A stretch of DNA of 64,000 nt from an uncultured Thermoleophilia bacterium (lineage in GTDB: Bacteria > Actinomycetota > Thermoleophilia > UBA2241), in the NCBI GenBank assembly GCA_963702475.1, contig CAVPCT010000004.1, forward strand, positions 224,001-288,000, given 5' to 3'. Position 1 is the first letter of the stretch. Every line of letters starts with the position of its first letter. Positions 9,520 through 55,235 of the stretch are shown here, piece after piece. Under the pieces are notes generated by a model. That model was not told the DNA's origin. It searched no databases and saw only the letters and a program-made list of their open reading frames with translations. A program made the position numbers and the translations under genes.

Positions 9520-10905
9520 TCAGGAAATCTTCGCGAGGCGCCGCAGTCGCGCGTCGACGTCGGCATCGAGCGGCGGCGGGCGATGGCTCTCCACGATGCG
9601 GACCACACGCTCGTGAGCGCGGTCGAGGGCCGTCTGGCGACCCCCCGCCGCCCAGTAGCGATGCGGCAGGTCTTCGATCAGGGACGGCGCCGGGGACGGG
9701 GCGGGCGGGTGTGGCTCGGGATTCGACGGCGCCGGCTCGTCGAGGCCGGAGAGGTCGATGCCCTGTGCGATCGCGCGGGCCTGGCTGACCGTGTCCGCCG
9801 CCAGCGACATCTCCTCGTAGCTGAAGATGCGGCCCCCCGAGACCATGCCGACCCCGGTGAGCATGTCGACGCCTGCGGCCAGCGAGAGGAAGGTCGTGGT
9901 GGTGTCATCGAGCGCCGACTGCCAGCCCGGCTCCTTGGCCCCTGACGAGTTGATGCCGCACTGCGTGGGCAGTGAGTAGAAGCGGCCGATGTCGGCGACC
10001 GCGGCGCCCATGACGGTGTCTTCCGGGGCGCCGCCCGTGAAGTCCCCGCTTGTGAGGTCCATGATGCTCGGGATGAAGCAGACGAAGACCGGCGCCCGCG
10101 GGAACGCGGCCTGTACTACGCACACGGCGGCCAGCGCTTCGGCGATGCCCACGACCAGCGAGCCGGCCATGGTGATGGGCGTTGTGGACCCGCCCATGGG
10201 CATGGTCACGAACCCGACCGGCACGCCTGCTTCGGCGAACACCAGGCCGGCCTCCAGGGTACCGGCGTCATTGCCCAGGGGCGTGACGGTGCCCAGCAGG
10301 GCGCTCACGGGCGGCGCGTCACGCAGCGCCTCGGGCGAGCCCGCGACGGCGGCCGCCATGGCGACGGCGGCCTCGGCAAGGTCCGGCTCCACCACGGTGA
10401 CGGTCTGCACGTGCTTGCCTGTGTTGGCGATGGCCAGGTACAGCTCGTGCAGGCCGCGGACCTCCGTCGGCCTGTCCTGAGCGCTGACGGCGGGCCAGCA
10501 GAAGTCCACCTCGGGCATGGCGTCGACCACGCGAGAGATGGTGGCGACGTCGGCGGCGGCGGTCCCGCGCTTCTCGCCGCTGGTCAGGTCGTAGATCTCC
10601 ACGCAGCAGCCGTCAGTGGTGAGGAGCGCGCGGTCGCCGGTCACGAGCGGGCTTGCGGCTCTGGCGCCTAGCGTGAGGGTCGGCGGCGCCAGGGCCACCA
10701 ACCGCCGGACGAGCTCGGGTCGGAATCTCACGATGCCGCCCTGGGCCTCCGCGCCCTGAGCGACCAGGGCATCGACGGCGGCGGCGGAGGGGACAGAGAC
10801 GCCCACGCCGGCGAGCACCTCCATCGCCGCGGCGTCGAGCCGCTCCAGGTCGAGGCGCGAGAGGATCGTCAAGCGGCCGGCGCTGCCCACGCTGTGCTCG
10901 TGCAT
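9520..10905 (-). CDS. Trimethylamine methyltransferase (MttB) family protein, non-pyrrolysine (second paralog)
   Basis: 'LSRLDLERLDAAAMEVLAGVGV', 'GGSTTPITMAGSL', 'GGAPE', 'AHERVVRIVESHRPPPLD'; GGAGG SD before ATG 10905. Confidence 0.88.
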   Translation of the reverse strand: MHEHSVGSAGRLTILSRLDLERLDAAAMEVLAGVGVSVPSAAAVDALVAQGAEAQGGIVRFRPELVRRLVALAPPTLTLGARAASPLVTGDRALLTTDGCCVEIYDLTSGEKRGTAAADVATISRVVDAMPEVDFCWPAVSAQDRPTEVRGLHELYLAIANTGKHVQTVTVVEPDLAEAAVAMAAAVAGSPEALRDAPPVSALLGTVTPLGNDAGTLEAGLVFAEAGVPVGFVTMPMGGSTTPITMAGSLVVGIAEALAAVCVVQAAFPRAPVFVCFIPSIMDLTSGDFTGGAPEDTVMGAAVADIGRFYSLPTQCGINSSGAKEPGWQSALDDTTTTFLSLAAGVDMLTGVGMVSGGRIFSYEEMSLAADTVSQARAIAQGIDLSGLDEPAPSNPEPHPPAPSPAPSLIEDLPHRYWAAGGRQTALDRAHERVVRIVESHRPPPLDADVDARLRRLAKIS

Positions 10906-11069
10906 CTCGTCGTCTCCTCCAGCCTGCCGAGCCGCGCCGAGACCGGCGTGCGTGGCGCGGGAACGGCGGGAGTGTGCGGTGCACCTCGCGGCACACCCCA
11001 CGTTGAGCCCGCTGCGTAGCTCAATCTAGCACGTTTGTGGGCCCCGGGAGCCACGGGTACCATGGCCTC

Positions 11070-16617: not shown

Positions 16618-18057
16618 ACGGACGACCAGCTCACACTCATCTGGGACGAGGCGAAGAAGCTCCTCGCCGCGCGCATGCCCGAAGCCGCGTACCGCCTGTG
16701 GGTGGAGCGCATGCTGCCGCTCGGCTTCGACGACGGCAAGTTCGTCATCGCTGTGCCCAACGACTTCACCCGGGAGTGGATCGCCGACCGGCTGCTCCAT
16801 CCCATCACTGAATCGCTGGCCGCGGTGCTCGGCGACACCGTCGACGTCCGCGTGGTCGTCGACGCTCGCGCCGAGCTGGCCAAGGTGAGTGAAGAGGCGG
16901 CGGAGGGTCCGTCGGTGGGCGGCGGCGACAGTCCGGAGCCGGAAGAGGCCGCTCTCGCGCGCCCATCCCGGCCGCGCGGACGCAGGCGCGGGCTCAAGGA
17001 GGGCCGGCCCCGGGTCCTGGGCGACCTCAACCCGCGCTATGTCTTTGACCGCTTCGTCGTGGGGCCGGCCAACCAGTACGCAGCCGCCGTGGCGCAGAGC
17101 GTGGCCGAGGCGCCGGCCACGGCGTACAACCCCGTGTTCATCTACGCCGACACAGGTCTCGGCAAGACACATCTCATCCAGGCCATCGGCCACGCGGCCA
17201 TCGAGGCCCATCCCGACCTCACCATCCGCTACGTCACCGTGGAGCGGTTCACCGACGATTTCATCAATGCGGTGACCGACAAGGCCCGCATCGAAGGCTT
17301 CAAACAGACGTACCGCGAGAACGACGTGCTGCTCATCGACGACGTGCAGTTCCTGGCCGAGAAACAGCAGACCCAGGTGGAGTTCTTCCACACGTTCAAC
17401 GCGCTGTACGAGGCCGGCAAGCAGATCGTCATCACCAGCGACCGGCAACCGCGCGAGCTGGAGGCGCTCGAGGAGCGCCTGCGCTCGCGCTTCGGCCAAG
17501 GCGTCGTCGTCGACATCGGGCGTCCGGACCTCGAGACGCGCATCGCCATCCTCCGCACCCAGGTGAAGCGGGAGGGGTTCAAGATCGCCGAGCCCGAGGT
17601 GCTGGACTGGATCGCCTCGAAGGTGACCACCAACATCCGCGAGCTGCACGGGGCCCTCACGCGGGTGGTCAGCTACGCCTCGATCCACGGGCAGGACGTG
17701 ACCAGGGAGGTCGCGCGCGAGGCTCTCAAGGAGATCCTCCCCAAGGTGTACCAGCACCAGGTGACGGTGGAGATGGTGCAGGGCGAGGTCGCACGCCAGT
17801 TCGGCCTGCACGTGAACGACCTCCGTGGCAACCGCCGCACCCAGGACGTGGCGTACGCGCGGCACATCGCCATGTACCTCTCGCGCGACCTCACCGAGGC
17901 TTCCACGCCGGAGATCGGCCGGCGCTTCGGCGGCCGCGACCACAGCACGGTGCTGCACGGCGTGCGCAAGGTCGAGCGCCAACTCAAGGACGGCCACGAC
18001 CCACAGCTGCAGGATCTCGTCGAGCTCATCTCGGCTCGCCTCAAGTCGCCTCGCTGA
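16618..18057 (+). CDS. dnaA: Chromosomal replication initiator DnaA (probable ACG start)
   Basis: 'YNPVFIYADTGLGKTHL', 'LLIDDVQFL', 'EFFHTFN', 'NIRELHGAL', 'GGRDHSTVLH'; domain I continues upstream of ATG 16675 to ACG 16618. Confidence 0.97.
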   Translation, partial: TDDQLTLIWDEAKKLLAARMPEAAYRLWVERMLPLGFDDGKFVIAVPNDFTREWIADRLLHPITESLAAVLGDTVDVRVVVDARAELAKVSEEAAEGPSVGGGDSPEPEEAALARPSRPRGRRRGLKEGRPRVLGDLNPRYVFDRFVVGPANQYAAAVAQSVAEAPATAYNPVFIYADTGLGKTHLIQAIGHAAIEAHPDLTIRYVTVERFTDDFINAVTDKARIEGFKQTYRENDVLLIDDVQFLAEKQQTQVEFFHTFNALYEAGKQIVITSDRQPRELEALEERLRSRFGQGVVVDIGRPDLETRIAILRTQVKREGFKIAEPEVLDWIASKVTTNIRELHGALTRVVSYASIHGQDVTREVAREALKEILPKVYQHQVTVEMVQGEVARQFGLHVNDLRGNRRTQDVAYARHIAMYLSRDLTEASTPEIGRRFGGRDHSTVLHGVRKVERQLKDGHDPQLQDLVELISARLKSPR

Positions 18058-18129
18058 GACCCGTGGGCGCGACCCGTGTTCGGCAGGCGGTCGTGGCAGT
18101 CGCCTTCTGACGACCCTCGCGCGGCGCTT

Positions 18130-18380
18130 GCACGCTCGTCCTGTGGGCTACCCGGGGACAACAGGTTGACGTTCTCCCGAAGGACGCCCAAATCGGGTAA
18201 GCTTCCTCCCGATAGGAGGGCCGCGGCCGGCGACGTGCGGCGTTCTGCACACCACGTCCACAGTTCTGTACGGAGCACCGCCGTTCGCGTCGAGCAGGGA
18301 GATCAGCACCTTTCCACATCGTCAACATGGGCTGTGACGATGGCGAGTGGAGAAGTATCTTCTCTTTATTGTCATAAGGA
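18130..18380. other. dnaA-dnaN intergenic region with degenerate DnaA boxes (possible oriC unwinding part)
   Basis: CGTCCACA ~18255, CTTTCCACA 18310-18318 followed by TCGTCAACA, and an AT-rich patch at 18351-18376. Confidence 0.5.
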
Positions 18381-18386
18381 GTCGGG

Positions 18387-19499
18387 ATGAAGCTCACGTG
18401 TGACCGGTCGGCACTGGTCGACAAACTCGCCATCCTCTCCCGTGGCGTGTCCACGCGTCTCGTGCTGCCTGTGCTTTCGGGCATCCTGGTCCAAGCCTCC
18501 GAGGGGCGCATCGAACTCTTCTCCACCGACATGGAGATCTCGATCAAGGCCTCTCTCGGTGCCGAGATCGAGCAGGAGGGTGAGATCGTCGTTCCTGCTC
18601 GGCTCTTCAGCGACATCGTGCGCAACCTCCCAGGCGACGCGGTCACCCTTGAGGCCGGTGAGACCACCGTGAACATCTCCGGCGGTCACGCCCGCTTCAC
18701 GCTGAACGCCTGGTCGGCCAGCGACTTCCCGCAGACCTCCACCTTCGACATGACGGGCTCGTTCGTCGTCGGTCGCGAGCCGTTCGTCGAGACGCTGAGC
18801 AAGGTGGGCCGCGCCGCTTCGCGCGACGAGACGCGGCCCATCCTCACCGGCGTGCTCATGACCATCGCCGGCGACGAGCTACGCATGGTCGCCACCGACA
18901 GCTACCGGCTCGCCGTCAAGAAGACCCGGCTCGAGACCGCACTGCCGTCCGAGGTCGAGGCCATCGTCCCGGTCAAGGCATTGGGCGAGGTCGCGCGGCT
19001 CGCCGGTTCCATGGGAGAGGGGCAGCTCGAGGTCGCGATCGGCGAGAACCAGGCGCTCTTCAAAGTCGGCGACGACGCCAGCCAGGTGCTCATAGCCTCA
19101 CGCCTCGTGGAGGGACAGTTCCCAAGCTACCGTCAGCTCATCCCCGACTCGTTCGACCACGAGGTCACGCTCGCCAAGGACGACTTCGTGGCGGCGGCGC
19201 GGCGCGTCAGCTTGCTGGCGCAGAAGAACGCGCCCCTGCGCCTCACCTTCGCGGCACACAGCCTCACGATGAGGGCCCTCACGCAGGACGTCGGGCAGGC
19301 CGAAGAGTCGCTGGACATCGAGTTCGACGGCGAATCCTTCGAGATCGGTTTCAACCCTGCCTACCTCATCGAGGGCATCGATGCGTTGGACGACGCCTCC
19401 GTGACGCTGCAGTTCACGAACCCGCTCAGGCCCGGCCTCATCACCGACGCCGAGCGCACCTTCACGTACCTCATCATGCCGATCCGCCTGAGTAGCTGA
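18387..19499 (+). CDS. dnaN: DNA polymerase III beta sliding clamp
   Basis: 'LPVLSGIL', 'TDMEISI', 'RPILTGV', 'VATDSYRLA', 'IGFNPAYL', 'YLIMPIRL'. Confidence 0.97.
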   Translation: MKLTCDRSALVDKLAILSRGVSTRLVLPVLSGILVQASEGRIELFSTDMEISIKASLGAEIEQEGEIVVPARLFSDIVRNLPGDAVTLEAGETTVNISGGHARFTLNAWSASDFPQTSTFDMTGSFVVGREPFVETLSKVGRAASRDETRPILTGVLMTIAGDELRMVATDSYRLAVKKTRLETALPSEVEAIVPVKALGEVARLAGSMGEGQLEVAIGENQALFKVGDDASQVLIASRLVEGQFPSYRQLIPDSFDHEVTLAKDDFVAAARRVSLLAQKNAPLRLTFAAHSLTMRALTQDVGQAEESLDIEFDGESFEIGFNPAYLIEGIDALDDASVTLQFTNPLRPGLITDAERTFTYLIMPIRLSS

Positions 19500-19711
19500 A
19501 CGAAGTCACCGTCAGCGGCCCCCTGCCGCTGGGGGCGTTCCTCAAGGTGGCCGGGGCGGCGTCCACCGGCGGTCACGCGAAGTTGCTCGTCCAGGAGGGC
19601 CAGGTCACGGTGAACGGCGAGATCGAGACCCGCCGCGGACGAAGCCTCAGACCGGGCGATATCGTGGGCGTCGGCGGTGAGGAGTACCGCGTGTGTTCGT
19701 CTCCCGCCTGA
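19496..19711 (+). CDS. yaaA: S4-domain RNA-binding protein YaaA (71 aa, probable CTG start; absent from ORF track)
   Basis: Translation (L/M)NEVTVSGPLPLGAFLKVAGAASTGGHAKLLVQEGQVTVNGEIETRRGRSLRPGDIV...; conserved position between dnaN and recF. Confidence 0.88.
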   Translation: MNEVTVSGPLPLGAFLKVAGAASTGGHAKLLVQEGQVTVNGEIETRRGRSLRPGDIVGVGGEEYRVCSSPA

Positions 19712-20979
19712 GGCTCGTCAACTTCCGCTCCTACTGCGACGCCTCGGTGCGCTTCGGCGACGGGCTCAACGTCGTCGTCGGCCAGAACGCCACAGGCAAG
19801 ACCAACCTGCTCGAGGGCGCCTGGTTCGCGCTGCGTGGGGCCTCGCCACGCACGCGCCGTGAGGAGAAGCTCATCACCTGGGGTCAGCGGTACACGCGGG
19901 TCGAGCTCGAGCTCGAGGGGGTGGCGGCAGGCGTGCAGCGCGCCGACGTCGCCTACGCGATCGGCCAAGGGAAGCGCGCACGCTGGAACGGCGTGGATGT
20001 ACCCTCGCAAGAGGACCTGCGCTCCCGCAGTCAGGTGTTCATCTTCGTACCCGAGAGCCTGTTGCTGGTGAAGGGCAGCCCGGCGCGGCGACGCGCGCAC
20101 CTCGACGCCTTCGCCGCCGTGCTGGACCCGCAGTACTCGGCCGCCGCGCGCGACCTGCAGACCGCGCTGCGCCAGCGTAATGCGCAACTGCTGGCCATGA
20201 AGCACGGCGCAAGCGCCGCCGCCCTGGACCCGTGGGACGTGCAGTTCTCGCGGGCGGCCGTGGAGCTGGGGCGCCGACGCCGCGCCCTGGTCGACGAGCT
20301 TGGCGTGCTCTTCGCCGAGATCGCCGCCGCGCTGGCGCCGGCCGGCGGCGTGTTCGGCCTGCAGCTCGTCGCCCAGCTCGCGACAGTCGGGTACGACGAC
20401 GAGGCCCTGATTGACGAGCTGCGCGCGCGCCGGCCGGGCGAGACGAGTCGCGGCCTCTCGCTGTTCGGACCTCACCGCGATGATCTGCGCTTCGTCGAGC
20501 TCGCGGCTGCAGATGCGGAGGGCAGCGGCGCGGCGGCGGCCGATCCGGACGGCGCGGCGGCGGCGGGACCGTTGCAGGACGTCTGCGCCACCGGCCCTGT
20601 CTGCGGCCCCGTGCAGCTGCCGCGCGGAGGGCGCGATCTGCGGCTGTTCGGCTCGCAGGGCGAGCAGCGCGCCGCGGTGCTGGCGCTGCTCCTCGCGGAG
20701 CAGCGCCTGGCCGCGGCTCGTTCCGGCGTGCGCGGCACGCTCTTCCTGGACGACGTCATGAGCGAGCTCGACGACGCCCGGCGGCGGCTTCTGGTGGCCA
20801 TGCTGGCCGCCGCCGGTCAGGCCATCATCACCACCACCAACCGGCAGTATTTCACCGCGGAGGAGCTCGAGCGGGCGGCGGTCATCGAGCTGCCGCTCGA
20901 CGGTTCTGTGGTGCCGGGCGCCGTCACGCCGCCGGCCGATGGACCCGGCCCCGCCCCGCCGGACCCGGCGGCACAGTAG
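19693..20979 (+). CDS. recF: DNA replication/repair protein RecF
   Basis: 'NFRSY', 'GQNATGKTNLLE', 'GPHRDDL', 'GSQGEQR', 'LDDVMSELD'. Confidence 0.95.
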   Translation: MFVSRLRLVNFRSYCDASVRFGDGLNVVVGQNATGKTNLLEGAWFALRGASPRTRREEKLITWGQRYTRVELELEGVAAGVQRADVAYAIGQGKRARWNGVDVPSQEDLRSRSQVFIFVPESLLLVKGSPARRRAHLDAFAAVLDPQYSAAARDLQTALRQRNAQLLAMKHGASAAALDPWDVQFSRAAVELGRRRRALVDELGVLFAEIAAALAPAGGVFGLQLVAQLATVGYDDEALIDELRARRPGETSRGLSLFGPHRDDLRFVELAAADAEGSGAAAADPDGAAAAGPLQDVCATGPVCGPVQLPRGGRDLRLFGSQGEQRAAVLALLLAEQRLAAARSGVRGTLFLDDVMSELDDARRRLLVAMLAAAGQAIITTTNRQYFTAEELERAAVIELPLDGSVVPGAVTPPADGPGPAPPDPAAQ

Positions 20980-21153
20980 GAGCGACCGACCCGGGCCTCC
21001 CCCCGGCCACCTGGCGCTCTCCCGTCCGGCCCGTGTCTCCCCAGCACGCCGGCACCCGCGGCCGCGGCGAACACTGTGGCCGCCAGGGAGTCGGCTACAA
21101 TCGAAAGGTGGCGGCTACGAGATGCGCGGCCGCTGAGAGGGAGGGAGGTCGTC

Positions 21154-22167
21154 ATGGCGGCTCAGGTCTCGCGTGGTCGCGCGCGCTCCACACAGGTCAT
21201 CCTGGTGCTCGCTCTGCTCGCGGCGGCCGCGCTCACCGTCGTGGGCGTCGCGGCCGCGTCCGGCGGCACACGGCCTCTCGCGGACACGTCTGCGGGGGCT
21301 GCTGAGTCGCCGTCCGCCGCTGTGGCCGGCGCCGCGGGGCCGCCCGTCAACGTCATCCTCTTCGGCTGGGACGGCGCCCAGCGCGCCCACGTCAAGGAGT
21401 GCCTCTCAAGGGGCGAGCTCCCGACTCTCATGAGCATCGCGGACAAGGGTCGTCTCGTGGCCGTCGACGTCGTACGTACCACGGACACCAAGTCCGGGTG
21501 GGCACAGATCCTCACCGGCTACCAGCCCGAGAAGACGGGCGTCTTCAGCAACAGCCGGTACCAGCCCATCCCAGAGGGCTACACCATCTTCGAGCGCCTG
21601 GAGAAGTCGTACGGGGAGAAGTTCGTCACGGTGGCGGTCATCGCCAAGAAGGACCACGTGGGCAACGGCGAGGGCCTGCCCTACGCCAACGCGAGCGCAC
21701 ACATGGACCATTTCGACGGCGGCCTGCTGCAGAACGAGGTGGTGGCCGAACGAGCGATGCTCTACCTCGAGCGGTACAGGGACAGGCCGTTCTTCTTCTT
21801 CGTTCACTTCGCGCAGCCCGACACCTCTGGTCACGCCCAGGGCGAGAACTCGCAGGAGTACACGGACGGGCTCATCTCGGACGACTACTGGACGGGCCGG
21901 GTCCTCGCCAGGCTCAAGGCGCTGGGGCTCAGCGGCAAGACGGCGATCTACATCACGGCCGACCACGGATTCGACGAGGGGCTGAAGAGCCACAACGACG
22001 CGCCGTATGTGTTCCTCGCGACCACCGACAAGGCCGTTGAGCGGAGGGGGCTGCGCGAGGATATCGCGCCGACGATATACGACCGCCTCGGGATCAAGAG
22101 GAGTGCCGTCTCGCCCGAGCTGGACGGGCGTTCGTTGCGCAGCGCCTACAGAGCGCCGCTGTGGTGA
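21154..22167 (+). CDS. Secreted alkaline phosphatase superfamily protein (phosphodiesterase/sulfatase-like)
   Basis: Signal/TM helix, 'NVILFGWDG', 'FVHFAQPDTSGH', 'ITADHG', 'DIAPTI'. Confidence 0.8.
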   Translation: MAAQVSRGRARSTQVILVLALLAAAALTVVGVAAASGGTRPLADTSAGAAESPSAAVAGAAGPPVNVILFGWDGAQRAHVKECLSRGELPTLMSIADKGRLVAVDVVRTTDTKSGWAQILTGYQPEKTGVFSNSRYQPIPEGYTIFERLEKSYGEKFVTVAVIAKKDHVGNGEGLPYANASAHMDHFDGGLLQNEVVAERAMLYLERYRDRPFFFFVHFAQPDTSGHAQGENSQEYTDGLISDDYWTGRVLARLKALGLSGKTAIYITADHGFDEGLKSHNDAPYVFLATTDKAVERRGLREDIAPTIYDRLGIKRSAVSPELDGRSLRSAYRAPLW

Positions 22168-22694
22168 GCGGCGGGGCTCCGCGGGGCCGCGCCGGTCGGG
22201 CGAGCCGGTCGGGCGAGCCCCGTCGCGTCGGCGACATCCTGGCCCCGGCGCTGGGTCAGCTCGCCGGGTCTGCCCAGGCGCGCGCGTACGGCGCCTGGGC
22301 GCGCGCCGCAGGTGACCAGGTGTCCGGCGGCGCGCGTCCGCGCAACTTCGCGCGCGGTACCCTTACGGTGGAGTGCTCATCGTCCGTCTGGGCCAACGAG
22401 CTCACGTATCTGAGCGCCGAGATCCTGCGGCGCATGGACGCGGTGGCGCCCGGCCACCCCGTCACGAAGCTTCGCTTCCTGGTCGCTTCGGCCCCGGCCG
22501 TGCAGGAGCCTGAGGCCCCAGCGGCGAAGGATGAGCAGAGACACGCGAGGCCCGGGCCGCCGGACTACGGCGACGCCCGGGCGCAGGCGGAAGGGGTGCG
22601 CGATGAGCGGCTCCGGGCGGCCATCGAGGCCGTCCTCAGGCCTGCCGGGAAGGGGTCTGGTCGGACCCCCGATCGACCCCCCCGACGCAGTTGA
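22164..22694 (+). CDS. dciA: DUF721/DciA family helicase-loading protein
   Basis: 'GTLTVECSSSVWANELTY...ILRRM...VTKLRF'; usual location upstream of gyrB. Confidence 0.8.
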   Translation: MSGGAPRGRAGRASRSGEPRRVGDILAPALGQLAGSAQARAYGAWARAAGDQVSGGARPRNFARGTLTVECSSSVWANELTYLSAEILRRMDAVAPGHPVTKLRFLVASAPAVQEPEAPAAKDEQRHARPGPPDYGDARAQAEGVRDERLRAAIEAVLRPAGKGSGRTPDRPPRRS

Positions 22695-22830
22695 CAAAAA
22701 CACGGGATTTGCGGCGGTTTTTGTCGTATCTCAGGCTCGCCCCGAGGCTCACCGTCTGATATACTCACAAAGGCAGGACGAGCCTGCCTGCGCCCCTCCG
22801 CGTATCCCCCTCGGCACAGAGCGAGGTTGA

Positions 22831-27700
<4,870 letters not shown>

Positions 27701-27796
27701 CCGCTGGAGGCGGCGAAGCCGCCGGACGGGGGTCAACGTGCGGTGCGCCGTCGGGCACACCGCACGAGCCCGCGACGGCATCGGTGGAGGCGCGGG

Positions 27797-29362
27797 TCAT
27801 GGATGCCGTCGGCCGCCGCATACGAACGGCCGGCGGCCGAGGCGTTCAACGCCTCTCGACGCTACCTGCCGGCTGAGTCCATCCTGGGCTGACCTGCCCT
27901 TCTCGCCGTCGCAGTCGCCCCCGGCCGAGGGGCGGGCGAGCGGATGCGCCGCCCGACGTCCCCTCAGGGCTCGCGGCACGAAGTGCTCGCCGGCGACGAA
28001 GTCCTCGACGGTCCGCCGCTTGGCGATCTGCCGCAGGCCGGCCTCGGTGACCATGTAGGCGCCGGCCTGGTCGCGGCCGTTGTAGGCGCTCATGCACTCC
28101 AGCGAGTAGGCGCCCACGTCGAGGAACGCGATCACGTCGCCGGGCTCGCTGTCGACCGGGAGGTGGCGGAAGGCGGAGCCGGGGTCGCCGGTGTAGACGT
28201 CCCCTCCATCACAGAGCGGTCCGCCGAGTCTGAATGGTCGCACCGGTGGCTTGTTGCAGCGGTTGGCGACCACGGCGCGGAAGTACCAGTGGTAGCTGGA
28301 GTGCTCGAGGATGGTGTTGAAGCCGGCGTCCACCATGAGCCAGTCCTCACGCTGGATGCGGCCCGGGGCGGCCTCGATCATCTTGCTCTTCTCGGCTTCA
28401 ACGCGCGTGACGAGGATGGCCGTGTTGCCGGCGATGGCCCGGCCCGGCTCCAGGAAGAGCTGCGTGCCGGGCCGGGCCGCGTGAAAGGACTCTGCGATCG
28501 CCCGGCCGTAGCCCTCCAGGGTGTGTGGGGCCTCGAAGTAGGTGTCGGGTTCGTCGCCGCTGCGGTCGTAGTAGGGGATGGCCAGACCGCCGCCGATGTC
28601 GAGGTGCTCCAGGCGTAGCTCGTGGGCCCTTTCCACGCGATCGAGGAGCGCGAGGCCTCTCCCGAGGGCCTCGAGGAAGGGGGCTATGTGCGTGATCTGA
28701 GACCCGATGTGGTAGTGCATGCCGACGAGCTGCACGCCCGGCAGCCGGACCGCGAGGCCGAATGCCCCGATGGCCTCGTTCACGTCGATGCCGGCCTTGG
28801 CGCCGGCGCTGGTGCGCAGGCCCGGGTGGGTCTCCGTGGCGACGTTGAGGTCCACGCGGAGTGAGACCCGGGCCTGCACGCCCAGGTCGGCGGCCACATC
28901 GGCCACCATGCGAAGCTCGAAGACGGAGTCGACCACGATGGCCTCGATGGGCGGCTGTAGCGCGGCCGCGATCTCATCGCGAGTCTTGGCATTGCCGTTG
29001 AAGATGATCTGCCGCGACTCGAAGCCGGCGCGGCGAGCCTTCCACAGCTCACCGCCCGAGTTCACCTCCACGTCGATACCGGCGCGCCGCACACGGTCCA
29101 GGAACCAGAGGTTGGAGCAGGCCTTGCTGGCGTAGAAGACACGTGTGCCGGTGTGGTAGGGCCGGAAGGCGTCGCGGACGGCGTTCACGTTGCGGTCGAT
29201 CTGCGCCGCGCTGAAAAGGAAGAACGGCGTGGGGGTGGTGTCCGCCATCGAGGCCACGTCCAGCCCGTCGAAGCGCATGCGGCCGCGCTCGCAGGTGATG
29301 ACGTCCTTCATCGGGTCGGCGATGCGCGCGAACTCCACGTCGCACTGCGGGGCGTCGTCCAT
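27797..29362 (-). CDS. Group IV PLP-dependent decarboxylase (diaminopimelate decarboxylase-like)
   Basis: 'FYASKAC' (PLP Lys), 'HYHIGSQ', 'LDIGGG', 'LEPGR', 'GPLCDGGD', 'GAY...MSAYNGR'. Confidence 0.85.
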   Translation of the reverse strand: MDDAPQCDVEFARIADPMKDVITCERGRMRFDGLDVASMADTTPTPFFLFSAAQIDRNVNAVRDAFRPYHTGTRVFYASKACSNLWFLDRVRRAGIDVEVNSGGELWKARRAGFESRQIIFNGNAKTRDEIAAALQPPIEAIVVDSVFELRMVADVAADLGVQARVSLRVDLNVATETHPGLRTSAGAKAGIDVNEAIGAFGLAVRLPGVQLVGMHYHIGSQITHIAPFLEALGRGLALLDRVERAHELRLEHLDIGGGLAIPYYDRSGDEPDTYFEAPHTLEGYGRAIAESFHAARPGTQLFLEPGRAIAGNTAILVTRVEAEKSKMIEAAPGRIQREDWLMVDAGFNTILEHSSYHWYFRAVVANRCNKPPVRPFRLGGPLCDGGDVYTGDPGSAFRHLPVDSEPGDVIAFLDVGAYSLECMSAYNGRDQAGAYMVTEAGLRQIAKRRTVEDFVAGEHFVPRALRGRRAAHPLARPSAGGDCDGEKGRSAQDGLSRQVASRGVERLGRRPFVCGGRRHP

Positions 29363-29407
29363 AGGTGGCCTCTCCTCGCTCGTGGTGGGTCGCGGGGCGC
29401 GGCGTGC

Positions 29408-30184
29408 TCAGGTCGGCCCGGCGCCGGCCCGGCGGGCGCGCACGAGCACACCGCCGAGGGATCCGTCGCGCACGCGGCCGAGGACGGCGTCGTACTCGGC
29501 CGCGACGAAGTCGTACCAGTCGCCGTCGAAGGTGCGGGTGATCTCGTCGCGCTTGCCGGCGATGCGCCGGCACAGGTCCTCGTACCAGACGAGGAACCTG
29601 GGGCTGAGGTCGCGGAGTTCCGTGAGGCGCCAGCCGGCGGCCGCAAGCCGGCGCGGCAGGTCGCCGGGCCGGAGCGGCCGCCACCACGCGAAGCTCTTGC
29701 GCGACGGCGCCGCCTCGGCGAAGCGTCCGGCAGGGTCGGAGTACTCGAACAGGCGCAGCTCGCCGCCGGGAGCAGCCAGCGCGGCGAGTTGCGAGAAGAC
29801 CGCATCCTTGTCCGGGACCGCGTAGAGCGCGGTCATGGAGTACGCAAGGACGAACGGGCCGGTCAGGGTCTCGGCGGCCCGTTGCAGGTCACCTTCGACG
29901 ATGGTCACGGCGGGATGCCGCTCGCGGGCGAGGCGCACCGTCTCGGCGTCGACCTCGAGGCCCGTCACGACGCCGAAGCCCTGCGCCTGCACCCAGGCGG
30001 CCGTACCGCCGGCGCCGCACCCCGCGTCCAGGATGCGGCGGTCCGGATCGGGCGCGAGCCCGGCGAAGAGGAGGCGGTTCGCCTCCTCTTCGCCGGGATG
30101 TGCGTAGTCGGCGTCGCGGATGAGCGCGAGCAGGCGTTTGCCCGTCGCGCTGTTCATGGCGAGCTGATCCACCAGCTTCTTCAT
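29408..30184 (-). CDS. Class I SAM-dependent methyltransferase (PEAMT/SDMT-like)
   Basis: 'HPGEEEA...RILDAGCGAGG' motif I; 'LAAPGGELRL'. Confidence 0.85.
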   Translation of the reverse strand: MKKLVDQLAMNSATGKRLLALIRDADYAHPGEEEANRLLFAGLAPDPDRRILDAGCGAGGTAAWVQAQGFGVVTGLEVDAETVRLARERHPAVTIVEGDLQRAAETLTGPFVLAYSMTALYAVPDKDAVFSQLAALAAPGGELRLFEYSDPAGRFAEAAPSRKSFAWWRPLRPGDLPRRLAAAGWRLTELRDLSPRFLVWYEDLCRRIAGKRDEITRTFDGDWYDFVAAEYDAVLGRVRDGSLGGVLVRARRAGAGPT

Positions 30185-30202
30185 GTCCGCGCGCGGCGAG
30201 CC

Positions 30203-32899
30203 TCAGATGAGCCCGTGCAGCTGCTGCACGAGCGGCTCGAAGTCCGGCCCCTTGAAGCAGTACTGCAGCTCGGTGAACCGGCTGCGAAGGTCTGCGACCG
30301 CTTCACTCACACGGGCGCCGTCGTTGACGGCGGCGGCCATCAGCTCGGCCACGGCGACGAAGTCCGCCGGCCCCATGCCGAAGCGTGTCATCTCCGAGAC
30401 GCCGAGTCGCAGGGCGCCCGAGGCGGTGAAGCCCTCTTCGTCGGGCGCCGCCTGGTAGTTGCAGACGATGTTGTTGGCCTCGAGGCGGCCGGCGACCTCG
30501 GGGCCGCGCCCGTAGCCGACGCGCACGATGACCTGGTGCGTCTCGGTGTAGTCGACGGCGGGATCGCCGGCCACGTCCAGCCCGGCCTCCTTGAGCGCCA
30601 CGGCGAAGGCCTTCGCGTTGCGGAGCACGGCCCGCTGATACTCGTCGCGGAAGTGGTTCATCTCGTAGGCCGCCATGAGCAGGCCCAGCAGCGTACCGAG
30701 GTGGTGGTTGCTCACCGACCCGGGGAACGCGCGCCGTTCGATCGCCTCCCAGAGGTCGTACTTCTCCTCCGTCTCCTCCCAACGGGCGCCGATGATGCCG
30801 CGCTGCGTGCCGAAGAACGTCTTGTGGGTCGATCCCGTGACGAGGTCTGCGCCCTCCCTGAACGGCTCCTGGAAGTGCGGGCCGACGAGGCCGAGCACGT
30901 GGGCCATGTCGTACATCAGCACGCAAGGGATGTCGGTCTCGTCGAGGAAGGTGCGCACCTCGTAGACCGGTTCCGGGTGCAGCACCATGCTCTTGCCGAG
31001 GATGATGAGCTCCGGGCGCTCCTGCTCGATGAGGTCGAGGAGCGCCGCAACGTCCGGTTTGTACGGATTGTCGGGCAGCACGGGGATGTCGACCACGGCT
31101 GGCAGCTCGGTTCGCGGATCGCGGGCCACATAGTCGCGCAGGGCGCCCATGGGCTGGGCGCTCAGGTGGCCGCCGCGGGCGATGTGGTTGTTGACCACCT
31201 TGGCGATGCGGCGCGGCTCGGCCTTGCGGTCGGCGCGGTTCAGGTAGTCGACCATGGCGCTGAACACAGCCGTGTTGGCCATCTGGCCGCTGATGACGCG
31301 AGTCTCCACCTCGAGGCAGCCGAGAAACGCACGCAGCTCGCTTCTGAGGAGCCGCTCCACCTCGTGGATGAAGCCTGTGCCCTGATAGTAGAAGACCTCC
31401 AGGTCGTAGAACGCCTCGGTCTTCTTGTGCTCGGCGTAGCGGAAGGACGGGTCCATCACGGAGAGCAGGCGCACCATCGGCGAGGCCGTCATCTCCGAGG
31501 GGATGAGGTCGATGCACTCAGACTGCCGCCACTCGTGGTTGGCGGCGGCGCCGCGCAACAGACGCAGCGCCTTCTCGCCGGCCTCGCCGCCCTCCAGCTC
31601 CGTGAGCTGGGGCGTGTAGTCCCAGACGATGGCGCGAGCGCACGGCGGCGCGTCGCTGCGCAGGTGGTACGGGACCACCAGCCCCGGCACACGGCGGCCG
31701 CGCACGTCGAGCTCGACCTCGTCGTCCTCGACCACGCGGCTGTCGATATACGCCAGGGCGATGGACCGCAGGTCGTGCTCGTCGGTGCGCGTGGAGCACA
31801 GGCCCTCGCCCTCGACGCCCCAGTACGGCACTGCCGTCCCGCTGGTCACCCAGCCGAGCGGCTCGCCGTCCTGGCTCAGGACGGTGGAGCCCTCGCGGGC
31901 GATGCCGCGCCCGGTCACGGCCACCGGCCGTGTGAGGCGCGGCAGGGCGCGGATGTCCGAATAGTCACGCGCCAGGATGCGGGCGTACGCCTCGTGCTGC
32001 GCCTTGAGGGACTCTCGCCCGACGTACTCGCCCTTGCGCGGCGAGAAGCTGACCGCGAACGTGGCCAAGGGGCAGCTCATGATGGGGATCTCGTTGCCCT
32101 CCGGGTCGAGCCCGAGCTCGTGGCCGTACAGCGGCAGGCCGGCCTCGAGACGCAGGGTATCGCGGGCGCCCAGCCCTACGGGGGTGGCGCCGCTCGCCAC
32201 CAGGGCGTCCCACACGGCTGGTCCGTCTTCGGAGGGCGTGAAGAGCTCGAAGCACAGGGGCTCGCCTGTGTACCCCGTGCGCGCGAGCCTGACGCGTACG
32301 TGCCGGTCGCCTGCACCTGCAGGGTCGGGGACCTTCATCGTCGCGACGCTCAGTTCGTTGCGGAACGGGTCGGGCAGCGAGCCGTGCTCGATCAGGCCGG
32401 CCAGCACATCGCGCGACGCCTGCCCTTGCAGTGCCAGCATGGCGATCTCGCCGGTCTCGTCCGTCAGGTCGACGTCCGGGAACCCCTCGAGATGCCGCTC
32501 GAGGTGCTCCCAGTCCTTCACGCGGTTGGCCGCGTTCACGACGAGCAGGAACTCGCCGTCCACGAAGCGGTACAGGTAGGCATCGTCGACCGCGCCGCCG
32601 GTGGGAGTGGGCACGATCGTGTACTGAGCCTGGAGCAGGTCGAGCGCCTCGGCGTTGTTGGTCAGGACGTGCTGCAGGAAGGCCGCCGAGCCGGGCCCGC
32701 GCAACACGAAGCGGCCCATGTGTGAGACGTCGAACAGGCCGGCGCTGCTGCGCGTGGCCAGGTGCTCGGCCAAGATGCCGCTCGGGTACTGCACCGGCAT
32801 CTCCCAGCCGCCGAAATCCACGAGCCGGGCGCCGGCCTCCACGTGCCGTTCGAAGAACGGAGTGCGGAGAAGGCTCCCGCCGGGCGCCGAGCCGCTCAT
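30203..32899 (-). CDS. Fusion of GcvT-like aminomethyltransferase and serine hydroxymethyltransferase-like domain
   Basis: N-terminal 'FGGWEMPVQY', 'FDVSHMG', 'RTGYTGE', 'GLGARDTLRLEAG'; C-terminal 'IDLIPSE', 'YDMAHVLGL', 'GSTHKTFFG', 'LRLGVSEMTRFG'; ATGA overlap with the upstream gene. Confidence 0.9.
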   Translation of the reverse strand: MSGSAPGGSLLRTPFFERHVEAGARLVDFGGWEMPVQYPSGILAEHLATRSSAGLFDVSHMGRFVLRGPGSAAFLQHVLTNNAEALDLLQAQYTIVPTPTGGAVDDAYLYRFVDGEFLLVVNAANRVKDWEHLERHLEGFPDVDLTDETGEIAMLALQGQASRDVLAGLIEHGSLPDPFRNELSVATMKVPDPAGAGDRHVRVRLARTGYTGEPLCFELFTPSEDGPAVWDALVASGATPVGLGARDTLRLEAGLPLYGHELGLDPEGNEIPIMSCPLATFAVSFSPRKGEYVGRESLKAQHEAYARILARDYSDIRALPRLTRPVAVTGRGIAREGSTVLSQDGEPLGWVTSGTAVPYWGVEGEGLCSTRTDEHDLRSIALAYIDSRVVEDDEVELDVRGRRVPGLVVPYHLRSDAPPCARAIVWDYTPQLTELEGGEAGEKALRLLRGAAANHEWRQSECIDLIPSEMTASPMVRLLSVMDPSFRYAEHKKTEAFYDLEVFYYQGTGFIHEVERLLRSELRAFLGCLEVETRVISGQMANTAVFSAMVDYLNRADRKAEPRRIAKVVNNHIARGGHLSAQPMGALRDYVARDPRTELPAVVDIPVLPDNPYKPDVAALLDLIEQERPELIILGKSMVLHPEPVYEVRTFLDETDIPCVLMYDMAHVLGLVGPHFQEPFREGADLVTGSTHKTFFGTQRGIIGARWEETEEKYDLWEAIERRAFPGSVSNHHLGTLLGLLMAAYEMNHFRDEYQRAVLRNAKAFAVALKEAGLDVAGDPAVDYTETHQVIVRVGYGRGPEVAGRLEANNIVCNYQAAPDEEGFTASGALRLGVSEMTRFGMGPADFVAVAELMAAAVNDGARVSEAVADLRSRFTELQYCFKGPDFEPLVQQLHGLI

Positions 32900-34107
32900 G
32901 CCTCTGCCCACGCCTTCAGCAGACCGAGCCCCTCGCGGATGAGGTCGCTGTTGATCCCTGAGTAGGCGAAGCGCACGTAGCGGCGCTCTTCGCCGGGCAG
33001 CTCGCGGCCGAAGTGCAGACGGGTGCAGAAACTGACGCCCGTCTCCTCCAGAGCCGCGCGTCTCAGCTGGTCGTAGGTCGTGAGACCCTTCTTCTCCATC
33101 AACCCCGTGACCTCGGGATACAGGTAGAAGGTGGCCTCTGGGCGGTAGCAGGTCACGCCGGGGATGGTGTTCAGGATGTCGACGGCGGTGTCACGGCGCT
33201 CCCTGAGGATCCGCACGATCTCCCGCGGGCCCGACTGGTCGCCGGAGAGGCCTTCCAGGGCGCCGTACTGCACGAAGTGGTTCGAGCAGCTCTCATCGTT
33301 CACGTTGAGCTTGGCGATGACGTCGACGATCGGGGCCGGCCCGACGGCGGCGCCCAGGCGCCAGCCGGTCATCGCGAACTTCTTGCTGAACGTGTACAGC
33401 ATGACGCAGCGTTCGGACATGCCGGGGAGCGAAGCCAGTGACCGGCTGCTCCCGGAGTAGCGGATGTCCCAGTAGGCTTCGTCGCAGAGCACGAGCAGAT
33501 CGTTCGCGAGGACGAACTCCGCGAGGCGCTCGACCTCGGCCGGCGAGCTCTCGGCGCCGGTGGGGTTCTGCAGGTTGTTGAAGACCAGGAGCTTGGTCTT
33601 CGGGCCGACCTGCGCCTCGAGCGAGTCCCAGTCGAGCTCGAAGTCCGCGGCGCCGGGCACGTAGCCGTACGGCTTGGCGACTCCGCCGTGGAACTCGATC
33701 TGGCTCTCGTAGATCGGGTAGCCGGGATTGGGGTAGAGGACCTCGTCTCCCGGGTCCATGAGGGCGAGGATGAATTTGCCGATCACGGGCTTGCCGCCGG
33801 GCTCGATGGCCACGTTGTCCGGCCCGAGCTCGAGGTCGTGCGAAGCCCCCACGTCCGCGGCCAGCGCCTCGCGCAGCGGCATGATGCCGGCGTTGGGGCA
33901 GTAACCCGTCTTGCCGTCGCGGATGGCCTTCGCGGCGGCGTCGACGATGTTCTGCGGCGTCGGCAGGTCCATGTCGCCGAGGTGGAATGGGTAGACGGTG
34001 TGGCCGAGCGCCTTCCACTCGTTGGCCTCGGCAGAGACGGCGAAGGCCGTCTCGGTCCCGAGGCGGCTTATGCGGCCGGCGAGACGGAGGTCGGGTGCGG
34101 TGCCCAT
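32896..34107 (-). CDS. Class I/II PLP-dependent aminotransferase
   Basis: 'NNLQNPTG', 'CDEAYWDI', 'TFSKKFAMTGWRLG', 'YVRFAYS'. Confidence 0.92.
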   Translation of the reverse strand: MGTAPDLRLAGRISRLGTETAFAVSAEANEWKALGHTVYPFHLGDMDLPTPQNIVDAAAKAIRDGKTGYCPNAGIMPLREALAADVGASHDLELGPDNVAIEPGGKPVIGKFILALMDPGDEVLYPNPGYPIYESQIEFHGGVAKPYGYVPGAADFELDWDSLEAQVGPKTKLLVFNNLQNPTGAESSPAEVERLAEFVLANDLLVLCDEAYWDIRYSGSSRSLASLPGMSERCVMLYTFSKKFAMTGWRLGAAVGPAPIVDVIAKLNVNDESCSNHFVQYGALEGLSGDQSGPREIVRILRERRDTAVDILNTIPGVTCYRPEATFYLYPEVTGLMEKKGLTTYDQLRRAALEETGVSFCTRLHFGRELPGEERRYVRFAYSGINSDLIREGLGLLKAWAEA

Positions 34108-34128
34108 GGCGTTCTCCCCCTGACGTCT

Positions 34129-34162
34129 GAGGACAGGGTGATGGTCCCATCACCCTGTCCTC
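34129..34162. promoter_or_regulatory. Perfect 16-bp hairpin in the riboswitch leader
   Basis: gaggacagggtgatgg-tc-ccatcaccctgtcctc, between the aptamer and the SD (GGGGGAG) of the aminotransferase. Confidence 0.6.
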
Positions 34163-34198
34163 GTGCGGCCGCTCGGCCGCCCGTTCCAGGGGCCCGTC

Positions 34199-34302
34199 CA
34201 GTCGCGCTCCGTTGGCCTGAGAGTTTCGGTGACGCATCCGGCGCCATCCTTGCCCCTTCGGCGCCCGTTTCCTCTTGTGAGCAGCGGGCTCTCGCGCGAC
34301 CA
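34199..34302 (-). ncRNA. Glycine riboswitch (singlet aptamer)
   Basis: Minus strand reads GUCGCGC-GAGAG...CGCCGAAGGGGCAA...AAACUCUCAGGCCAACGGA-GCGCGAC, with P1 closure; upstream of a GcvT-containing operon. Confidence 0.88.
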
Positions 34303-34469
34303 TCCGCCGGGCATCCTCGGTCAGCCAGAGGGTAGCACCGCTTGGGCGGCGAGGGCAACGCCGGGCCGTTCGTCCTGCCCCTGGCCCGCCGGTTCTCTGG
34401 GCGGCCGCCTACACAGTCTCCCGCCGGGTCGGCGCCTGACCCCTCGACCCCTCTGGCCGGCAGGTCGAC

Positions 34470-34725
34470 TTCCTTGAGGAACGGCCGCGAGCGCCACTCC
34501 AGGCAGCGATGCGCGCCGTCGGCGCTGCGGTACCGGTTCACAGACTCGGTCTCTGGGTGGTTGTGCCCGAGGCTGTCGACGGCCGCCAGAGTGGCGTCCA
34601 CATCGTCGGGGTGCACCGGGTCCAGGAAGCGCCGTCCCTCGAGCTCCTCCACCGGTGGCCGCGCTTCTGGGGAAGCGGCGGAGCGACACCGTGTACAGCC
34701 CTCCCTGGATACGCTCCAAGCGGCC
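34470..34725 (-). pseudogene. Degraded PAS-domain fragment
   Basis: 'VEELEGRRFLDPVHPDDVDATLAAV...VNRYRSADG..RCLEWRSRP' (PAS_3-like), with the preceding 'AWERI..YTV' in a different frame; no intact host gene. Confidence 0.65.
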
Positions 34726-34831
34726 GTTGGCATAGCAGGCGAGGTCCTCGGGTGATGCGTCGCTCCTCTGTCAACTCGCCATCGGGCCGTCCGGTGGCCT
34801 GCCCGCGCTCGCTCCGATAGACTCCCGTCCC

Positions 34832-35875
<1,044 letters not shown>

Positions 35876-53936: not shown

Positions 53937-55133
53937 TTACGCCTCGATCTTGATGACGGAGCCGGCGCCCTGGCCGCCACCCACACAGGCGCCGGTGAGG
54001 CCGATCTCTTGGCCGCGTTTCTGCAGCTCGTGGATGAGCGTCACGAGCATGCGGGTGCCGGTGTTGCCGAGCGGGTGCCCAAGGGCGACGGCGCCGCCGT
54101 TCACGTTGACGATGTCGGGTTCGAGCCCGAGCTCACGGGTCGCCAGGGCAGCCACGCAGGCGAAGGCCTCGTTGAGCTCGGCGAGCTCGACGTCCTTACT
54201 GGCAAGGCCGGCCTTCTCCAGCGCCTTCTGAGCGGCGACGGTCTCGCCGTAGCCCATGATCGCGGGTTCGACGGCCGCCGTCGCGTAGCTGCACAGCTGC
54301 GCGATGGGCTCGAGGCCGAGCTCGGCGGCCTTCTTGCGCGAGGTCACGACGACCGCGCTGGCCCCGTCGGCGATGGCCGAGGAGTTGCCGGCCGTCACCA
54401 CACCGCCGTCCTTCTTGAAGACCGGCTTGAGGCCGTCGAGCGCCTCCATGGACGTCTCCCGGGGGCACTCATCGGTGTCGATGATCTTCGGGTCGCCCTT
54501 GCGCTGCGGGATCTCTACCGGGACGATCTCGTCCTTGAACCTTCCGGCCTTGATGGCGGCCGTGGCGTTGAGCTGGCTCCTGTAGGCCACCTCGTTCTGC
54601 AGCTCTTTGCTGATGCCGAACCGCTCGCTGAGGTTCTCGGCCGTCAGGCCCATGTGGGTGCCGCCGATCGCGCACCACAGGCCGTCGAGCACCATCGCGT
54701 CGAACATGGGTGCCGAAGGCATGCCCATGCGGTAGCCGCTGCGGCCGTCCTGGAGCAGCCACGGCGCACGGGTCATGTTCTCGGTGCCGCCGACGAGGTA
54801 CAGCTCGCCGTCGCCGGCCTTGATGCTGGACGCTGCCCAGGCGAGCGCCGCCGCGCTCGACACGCAGACGCGGTTCACGGTGACGGCCGGCACGGTCTCC
54901 GGGATGCCGGCTTTGAGCTCGGCCTGGCGGGCGGTGTTCTGCCCCAGGCCGGCCTGGATGACGTTGCCGAACATGACCTCATCCAGTTGCTCGCCCTTGA
55001 CGCCGGCGCGCTCGAGCGCCGCCGTCATGACGATCGCAGCCAGGTCCACCGCGGGGGTACCGGCGAACCCACCCTGGAACTTGCCCTGCGCGGTGCGGAC
55101 CGCAGACAGGATGACGATATCGTTGTCGGACAC
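53937..55133 (-). CDS. Acetyl-CoA acetyltransferase (thiolase)
   Basis: 'VNRVCVSS' catalytic Cys, 'ELNEAFA', '[11 protein letters not shown]', 'CVGGGQG'; GAGGAGG SD before GTG 55133. Confidence 0.93.
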
Positions 55134-55203
55134 TGTGGCCTCCTCAGCCGTCACGTGTGGCTGCAGCCCCCTGTGCGCTCTCTACGCACTGCATCACGCA
55201 CAC

Positions 55204-55221
55204 CTGTGTATGTGTTCACAG
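55204..55221. promoter_or_regulatory. Putative Rex operator upstream of thiolase
   Basis: Minus strand CTGTGAACACATACACAG against the Rex consensus TTGTGAA-N4-TTCACAA. Confidence 0.5.
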
Positions 55222-55235
55222 CCTATGGTACAGGG

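Follow-up and report, generated by a model that had tools for sequence, protein, structure and literature searches.

Glycine cleavage and serine hydroxymethyltransferase (SHMT) together form a hub linking glycine, serine and one-carbon (C1) units. In Bacillus subtilis the cleavage genes are arranged as gcvT-gcvPA-gcvPB, and in Streptomyces gcvT-gcvH and gcvP are controlled by separate riboswitches. The photorespiratory and serine-cycle set of enzymes comprises the glycine decarboxylase complex, SHMT, serine:glyoxylate aminotransferase, hydroxypyruvate reductase and glycerate kinase. Here we describe a glycine-riboswitch operon of an uncultured Thermoleophilia bacterium (GTDB lineage UBA2241) in which the T-protein of the cleavage system, GcvT, is fused to an SHMT. 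The operon lies in a stretch of 64,000 nucleotides (hereafter, the window), corresponding to positions 224,001 to 288,000 of contig CAVPCT010000004.1 in assembly GCA_963702475.1, a 4.3-Mb assembly of 9 contigs that is 93.8% complete. Judging from its gene content, the operon is probably a glycine-induced unit that removes or assimilates glycine, in which the cleavage system and the fused SHMT would make serine and then, probably, hydroxypyruvate.

Two glycine-controlled units share the cleavage system

The operon consists of an RF00504 aptamer followed by four genes, all on the minus strand: a class I/II aminotransferase (AT; 32896..34107; 403 amino acids; PF00155, 174 bits), the GcvT-SHMT fusion (TS; 30203..32899), a class I S-adenosylmethionine-dependent methyltransferase (MT; 29408..30184; 258 amino acids; Methyltransf_23/25/11) and a fold-type III pyridoxal phosphate (PLP) decarboxylase (DC; 27797..29362; open reading frame of 521 amino acids; Orn_Arg_deC_N, 152.9 bits). 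As a preliminary description of this DNA had stated, the four genes are co-oriented, AT and TS overlap by ATGA, and gaps of 18 and 45 nucleotides separate TS from MT and MT from DC, all of which can be read directly from the sequence. A Shine-Dalgarno-like run, GAGGAGAGG, precedes DC inside the 45-nucleotide gap. The aptamer (34195..34306, minus strand) matched the full RF00504 model (positions 1-94) with 62 bits against a gathering score of 32 (E 1.9e-10). No second aptamer was found at E <= 1 within 33900-34850, and therefore the riboswitch heading the operon is a singlet, in agreement with that description.

The operon holds no gcvH, gcvP or lpd, which was also correctly noted before. The genes gcvH, gcvPA and gcvPB were located on another contig (C3, 126-129 kb), directly behind a second RF00504 match (59.8 bits), and are followed there by lipB, lpd and lipA. 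The cleavage system is split between two glycine-controlled units. Because the second riboswitch unit encodes the H-, P- and L-proteins, their absence from the operon is no pointer to a route that dispenses with them, and the missing gcvH and gcvP were rejected as a sign of an H/P-independent route. Of the non-canonical glycine/C1 route proposed earlier, the unusual arrangement is borne out: the fusion of T-protein and SHMT, the fixed aminotransferase partner and the location of the H, P and L genes elsewhere. Canonical glyA (497.5 bits) and lysA (478.9 bits) genes are likewise present elsewhere in the genome.

The only GCV_T domain of this genome is that of TS. Within the genus, GDC-P and GCV_T were both absent from the near-complete genomes without the fusion (5/5), and GDC-P was present in the genomes with it (5/5). 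A second riboswitch preceded gcvH in 4 of the 6 genus genomes examined; with our own covariance model none was detected at the gcvP loci of two small genomes (L107 and L108).

The expression platform (34108..34194, minus strand) contains a conserved GGGCCCCUGG segment, a variable hairpin, a 13-bp hairpin and the Shine-Dalgarno sequence AGGGGGAG. The 13-bp hairpin (GGACAGGGUGAUGGG..CAUCACCCUGUCC), which follows the aptamer and precedes the Shine-Dalgarno sequence, keeps all its 13 pairs in 17/17 aligned relatives; two of the pairs vary, by G-U wobbles only, and compensatory changes were absent from these 17. In the minimum-energy fold the CCCCUG segment pairs with the Shine-Dalgarno sequence (z -4.64). 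Possible roles of the 13-bp hairpin are those of a ghost aptamer, of a terminator or of an element in a switch sequestering the Shine-Dalgarno sequence. According to the available excerpts of one study, glycine riboswitches of Actinobacteria mostly regulate cleavage genes, and glycine-degradation genes are upregulated (PMC6944388). From the known behaviour of glycine riboswitches before cleavage genes we infer that this switch, too, is turned ON by glycine.

The GcvT-SHMT fusion protein

Translated from the ATG at 32899, TS has 898 amino acids and is identical to database protein P0001; the longest open reading frame begins at a GTG at 32911 (902 amino acids). The protein carries GCV_T (247.6 bits, residues 21-267), GCV_T_C and SHMT (residues 459-857) domains, which bears out the earlier identification of a GcvT- and GlyA-like fusion of about 898 residues. 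The T half passed two GcvT models (NF001567, 303.8 against 300; TIGR00528, 246.3 against 235.85), and the SHMT half scored 103.7 bits with Pfam PF00464 against a cut-off of 27. The closest solved relative of the SHMT half was the SHMT of Methanocaldococcus jannaschii (4uqv/4bhd; 163.9 bits over the full length), an enzyme reported to use tetrahydromethanopterin, whereas bacterial and eukaryotic SHMTs reached only 65-77 bits. The motifs STHKTFFG, GGHLS, D-AH, RLG...TRFGM and FPG-VSNHH are common to the SHMT half and the M. jannaschii enzyme, and we take them to include the PLP-binding lysine and substrate-binding residues. Identity to the GlyA of the same genome was about 31%. Since this canonical glyA lies elsewhere in the genome, the fused SHMT represents an additional copy, under glycine control.

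Conservation of the operon among relatives

Synteny was compared in 60 related loci and the window. Loci were taken from full-length matches, long contigs being preferred; gene labels came from tblastn with single queries (E <= 1e-15), a procedure that may miss divergent genes, and aptamers were sought with Rfam and with our own covariance model. The family of the window contributed 51 loci (window included), and a second family with the fusion contributed 10. A riboswitch precedes the first operon gene in 47/51 family loci, and AT lies directly upstream of TS in 47/51. With our own model no riboswitch was detected at L049, L068, L072 and L094, the last of which ends near AT. The operon core is the riboswitch plus AT-TS, and the remaining genes vary: MT was found in 24 of the 51 family loci, a transketolase-like gene in 14, a co-oriented 2-hydroxyacid dehydrogenase in 13, a glycerate 2-kinase (DUF4147/MOFRL) in 11, an AsnC regulator together with a 443-amino-acid protein in 10, DC in 6, and gcvH-PA-PB within the same locus in 2. 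One genome (G023) has two loci, arranged as AT-TS-gcvH-PA-PB-transketolase-like and as reductase-TS-kinase. A TS tree was built from 49 rows, after 12 with frameshifts or lacking a motif had been removed; in it the genes for the reductase, the kinase and the transketolase-like protein were spread over several genera. MT appeared in one 16-row clade and two other places, all inside the genus, and DC at three places near the window.

Proposed function and the role of the aminotransferase

We propose the following sequence of events. High glycine would turn the operon on through its singlet riboswitch, and the second glycine riboswitch, on the other contig, would turn on gcvH-gcvPA-gcvPB-lipB-lpd-lipA. 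The P-, H- and L-proteins and the T domain of the fusion would then split one glycine into CO2, NH3 and 5,10-methylene-tetrahydrofolate, and the fused archaeal-type SHMT would add the C1 unit to a second glycine to give serine. As T-protein and SHMT are joined on a single chain, the folate would thus be used and regenerated on one polypeptide, and methylene-folate may be channelled directly between the two halves. The translationally coupled AT would most likely convert serine into hydroxypyruvate. In those relatives that have them, the hydroxypyruvate/glyoxylate reductase and the glycerate 2-kinase of the operon would take the carbon on to phosphoglycerate. MT and DC would be recent additions within the genus that do not form a joint pathway.

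The top NCBIfam model of AT was the aspartate transaminase PRK06107 (225 bits against a cut-off of 617), no curated cut-off was reached among the best 25 of the 65 NCBIfam models matched, and the best solved structure was an aspartate aminotransferase (1j32, 205 bits). The class I alanine:glyoxylate transaminase 2zc0 was also among its solved relatives (66.6 bits), which would suit an AT acting on glycine and glyoxylate instead of serine and hydroxypyruvate. The dehydrogenase of the relatives, whose top model was glyoxylate reductase/GhrB, would in that case be a glyoxylate reductase, as its best NCBIfam model also says (216 bits against a cut-off of 455). However, the glycerate 2-kinase present in 11/51 operons suits hydroxypyruvate and glycerate, not glycolate, and translational coupling links AT to the enzyme that forms serine. 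We regard a glyoxylate-linked AT as rather unlikely, and keep to the conversion of serine as the preferred assignment.

Several observations count against a glycine-to-hydroxypyruvate unit. The operon of the window has neither the reductase nor the kinase gene. An ortholog of the reductase lies on contig C6, without a riboswitch; the genome's only match to DUF4147, the glycerate 2-kinase family (G000:C3:1039717-1040438; L103-L105), is split across two frames with an internal TGA, which means either that the gene is broken or that the assembly is wrong there. A GlxK-type kinase was not found in the genome of the window. The substrate proposed for AT is inferred from gene neighbours only, the sequence being nearest to aspartate aminotransferases. 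In the second family, all 10 of 10 loci have TS without riboswitch, AT or accessory genes; one of them has gcvPA-PB just upstream of TS. The related genomes are kin, and their loci counts are not independent events. Finally, the SHMT half scored 222.8 against the NCBIfam PRK00011 cut-off of 335, and its second-best solved relative was of the threonine transaldolase type (7k34, 97 bits).

This last point, together with a match of the SHMT half to a fluorothreonine transaldolase model (127 bits), could be taken to mean that this half is a folate-independent aldolase or transaldolase and that the fusion makes something other than serine. But the M. jannaschii SHMT is much closer (163.9 bits, full length, with PLP and substrate motifs in common), and the fusion to a folate enzyme, with cleavage-system neighbours in several phyla, favours a folate-linked reaction. 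We therefore hold such an aldolase to be highly improbable, and retain serine as the expected product.

The direction of the whole system could also be the opposite one. MttB-family (trimethylamine/quaternary-amine methyltransferase-like) genes, accompanied by corrinoid proteins, occur both in the window, at 143-1735 and 9520-11001 (minus strand), and in other parts of the genome (L059 and L060). The presence of several such genes in window and genome suggests methylated-amine catabolism in this organism, which would yield glycine and C1 units. The cleavage system might then run as a glycine synthase, with methylated amines supplying the C1 units of a reductive glycine route, and the fused SHMT would drain glycine and methylene-tetrahydrofolate into serine for biosynthesis. 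Apart from the MttB-family genes and their corrinoid proteins, this is consistent with the presence of the fusion in Candidatus Formimonas warabiya and in metagenome-assembled genomes (MAGs) of sulfate reducers, and with a proposal, in the accessible part of PMC10327494, that the cleavage system acts as glycine synthase, followed by GlyA, in the bacterial class of Ca. Formimonas warabiya. On the other hand, a glycine-activated switch is better suited to glycine removal than to synthesis, and the direction of flux is not a property that a sequence reveals. We consider glycine synthesis unlikely, and glycine removal or assimilation remains the preferred function of the operon.

The methyltransferase and the decarboxylase

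The preliminary description had placed MT and DC in the operon, and their genomic distribution agrees with this. Orthologs of MT (E <= 1e-30) occur in 29 of the 89 family genomes, all of them in the genus of the window, and directly adjoin TS, the exception being a fragment in G113 that sits on a short contig of its own. Orthologs of DC (71-84% identity) occur in 11 genus genomes, including that of the window; they lie inside the operon in the 7/7 genomes in which contiguity could be checked, and in the remaining 4 the gene is found on a short contig of its own. The four genes had also been regarded as one set. The synteny comparison spoke against this, as the four do not recur together: MT is present in 24 of the 51 family loci and DC in 6, yet the two meet in only 2, MT occurring without DC in 22 and DC without MT in 4. 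MT and DC are each tied to the operon, not to each other, and this is therefore evidence against one pathway needing both.

The predicted model of MT (predicted local distance difference test score, pLDDT, 86.8) had as best folds the phosphoethanolamine N-methyltransferases (Z 26.6-27.4 with VIA-align; Foldseek TM-score about 0.8). Superposition on 4iv0, helical lid included, gave Z 27.4 and a root-mean-square deviation (rmsd) of 2.5 over 250 aligned residues. Within about 1.4 Z of this the fold was tied with AtmM (26.2) and with the sarcosine/dimethylglycine methyltransferase SDMT (2o57, 26.0). The best sequence match among solved structures was again a phosphoethanolamine N-methyltransferase (5wp5, E 3.8e-07). 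MT reached no curated family cut-off, and ESM Atlas returned only generic class I methyltransferase clusters. The likeliest assignment of MT is an N-methyltransferase acting on some small polar amine.

DC exceeded the cut-off of the lysA model TIGR01048 (312.2 against 297.9) and fell below that of DokD (NF052544, 333.7 against 700). Its best solved relative was the D-ornithine/D-lysine decarboxylase 6n2h (268.9 bits); the diaminopimelate (DAP) decarboxylase 1twi scored 202.8, and 10li, a chain titled DAP decarboxylase, 267.3. By these matches DC resembles D-ornithine/D-lysine decarboxylase more closely than DAP decarboxylase, and the earlier label of a LysA-type decarboxylase agrees with the family model. 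DC is not the only lysA-like gene of the genome, and its being the housekeeping lysA was ruled out by the better match elsewhere (478.9 bits). A paralog 46-54% identical to DC exists in most family genomes; that of the window genome (48-50% identical) adjoins an Orr-like racemase. The conserved part of DC comprises about 465 amino acids, and the last ~55 residues (window 27797-27961) form an Arg-rich tail that is not shared by three orthologs and a paralog. DC thus appears to be a recruited copy of a D-ornithine/D-lysine-decarboxylase-like gene. Taken together, MT and DC look like recent, genus-restricted additions to the operon.

The preliminary description had proposed that the operon turns glycine into a decarboxylated and methylated amine: glycine would give serine, DC would decarboxylate serine, for example to ethanolamine, and MT would N-methylate the product. 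The resemblance of MT to phosphoethanolamine N-methyltransferases, in fold and in its sequence match to 5wp5, agrees with such a pathway, as do the restriction of MT and DC orthologs to the operon, the short gaps and the Shine-Dalgarno-like run before DC. What counts against the pathway is the co-occurrence of MT and DC in only 2/51 loci (MT alone in 22, DC alone in 4). Moreover, the family of DC decarboxylates diamino acids (DAP, D-ornithine/D-lysine), not serine, and the fold of MT, tied as it is with sarcosine/dimethylglycine and sugar O-methyltransferases, does not give a substrate. We judge this pathway very unlikely. A different and still doubtful idea is that MT and DC are glycine-induced extra outlets for carbon and nitrogen derived from glycine: MT would be an N-methyltransferase of the glycine/sarcosine or phosphoethanolamine type, serving as a second glycine sink or making a methylated osmolyte, and DC a neofunctionalised D-diamino-acid decarboxylase with a new substrate, while the fused T-SHMT would hand methylene-folate between its active sites.

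Distribution of the fusion

Across the class, 401 genomes were sampled, and the fusion query found a match in 94 of them (E <= 1e-90). Matches were confined to two families (67/79 and 26/61 genomes), and some of those in the second family were to the T half alone: some genomes there (G171, G238, G190, G080 and G274) carry a 55-63% identical T-protein matching residues ~11-437 only. These T-only proteins indicate that the fusion was made or split inside that family. Among representatives clustered at 50% identity there were 11 full-length fusions, down to about 36% identity, as well as free-standing versions of both halves; source names of the fusions include Woesearchaeota MAGs and marine metagenomes. 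In species genomes, full-length fusions were found in 14 of the best 80 loci, the hosts being Desulfobacterales, other Thermodesulfobacteriota, SAR324, Armatimonadetes, two gammaproteobacterial MAGs and Ca. Formimonas warabiya. The genes gcvH/PA/PB or lpd lie beside the fusion in 6 of 16 loci from other phyla. An Rfam scan of 9 such loci detected aptamers only in Ca. Formimonas warabiya DCMF, where a tandem glycine riboswitch (L120:6482-6759; 52.8 and 56.9 bits) stands directly before a 57-58% identical fusion.

The database name of the fusion is 'GcvT' only, and metabolic reconstructions therefore miss the SHMT half. The portions of the literature that were searched contained no description of a natural GcvT-SHMT fusion, no glycine riboswitch controlling hydroxypyruvate and glycerate kinase genes, and no paper pairing 'glycine riboswitch' with 'Thermoleophilia'; in the excerpts available of PMC10327494, GcvT and GlyA are handled as separate genes. 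New here are the split two-riboswitch regulon, the modular operon and two accessory enzymes restricted to it.

Accessory genes and genomic surroundings

The transketolase-like gene of the relatives is divergent (786-805 amino acids; L038:4601-6961, L049:780-3186, where it is split in two, and L116:4704-6950). It ranks second in frequency among the genes after TS, and in one gammaproteobacterial MAG it immediately precedes the fusion. The genome of the window has a copy (L058:6322-8739) beside genes for a B12-binding protein, an amino-acid permease, a transaldolase-like protein and an aminotransferase. One idea is that this enzyme may use hydroxypyruvate as ketol donor. The AsnC/Lrp regulator and the 443-amino-acid protein, which has no Pfam match, follow the operon at L040:4262-6099 and in 9 more loci.

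The operon is flanked by trpS and gyrA, both on the opposite strand, and keeps this position throughout the genus. A run of dnaA, dnaN, recF-like, DciA, gyrB and gyrA genes (16675-27700) adjoins it, so that the operon is probably next to the replication origin. At 53937-57613 (minus strand) the window encodes an alpha subunit similar to that of D-lysine 5,6-aminomutase (789 bits) and, with it, a B12-binding subunit that carries an OAM dimerisation domain; a thiolase gene lies beside them, and these genes look like part of a lysine or ornithine fermentation. A scan of 27500-34900 for promoters and terminators returned no promoter-like sites and one terminator-like site on the plus strand against 2.1 expected, and is uninformative for a G+C-rich organism.

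Comparison with known systems

A single-chain T-protein-SHMT would, if the proposed function is true, be a compact glycine-to-serine module recycling its own folate, with relevance for glycine detoxification and for engineering of the reductive glycine pathway. Uncultured bacteria of several phyla commonly carry the fusion, and the variable genes (MT, DC and transketolase-like) encode candidate enzymes that can so far be placed only by their presence in a glycine-controlled operon.

At the level of single proteins, the SHMT half resembles the M. jannaschii enzyme (4uqv, 4bhd) in its PLP-lysine and substrate motifs, but the archaeal SHMT stands alone, and the domain described here is fused to a bacterial-type folate T-protein. 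MT shares its whole-chain fold with the phosphoethanolamine N-methyltransferases of Plasmodium, plants and nematodes and with 2o57 (Z 26-27.4, rmsd 2.2-3.4, 241-254 residues), at only 14-19% identity. DC differs from DokD (6n2h, 8d88) in lying in a glycine operon without a racemase.

At the level of the operon, the locus is like the glycine-riboswitch cleavage operons of B. subtilis and Streptomyces in having an aptamer before the T and the P/H genes, a two-unit regulon and the expected ON logic. Unlike those operons, it opens with an aminotransferase gene, has a singlet aptamer and encodes the T-protein as a fusion with SHMT, and its accessory genes (reductase, kinase, transketolase-like, MT and DC) change between genomes. 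With the photorespiratory and serine-cycle set it would share the chemistry proposed here from glycine to phosphoglycerate, and all five functions are found in the operons of some relatives, although that of the window is without reductase and kinase. In contrast to that set, the aminotransferase is of class I instead of class V, T-protein and SHMT are one protein, and control is by an RNA switch.

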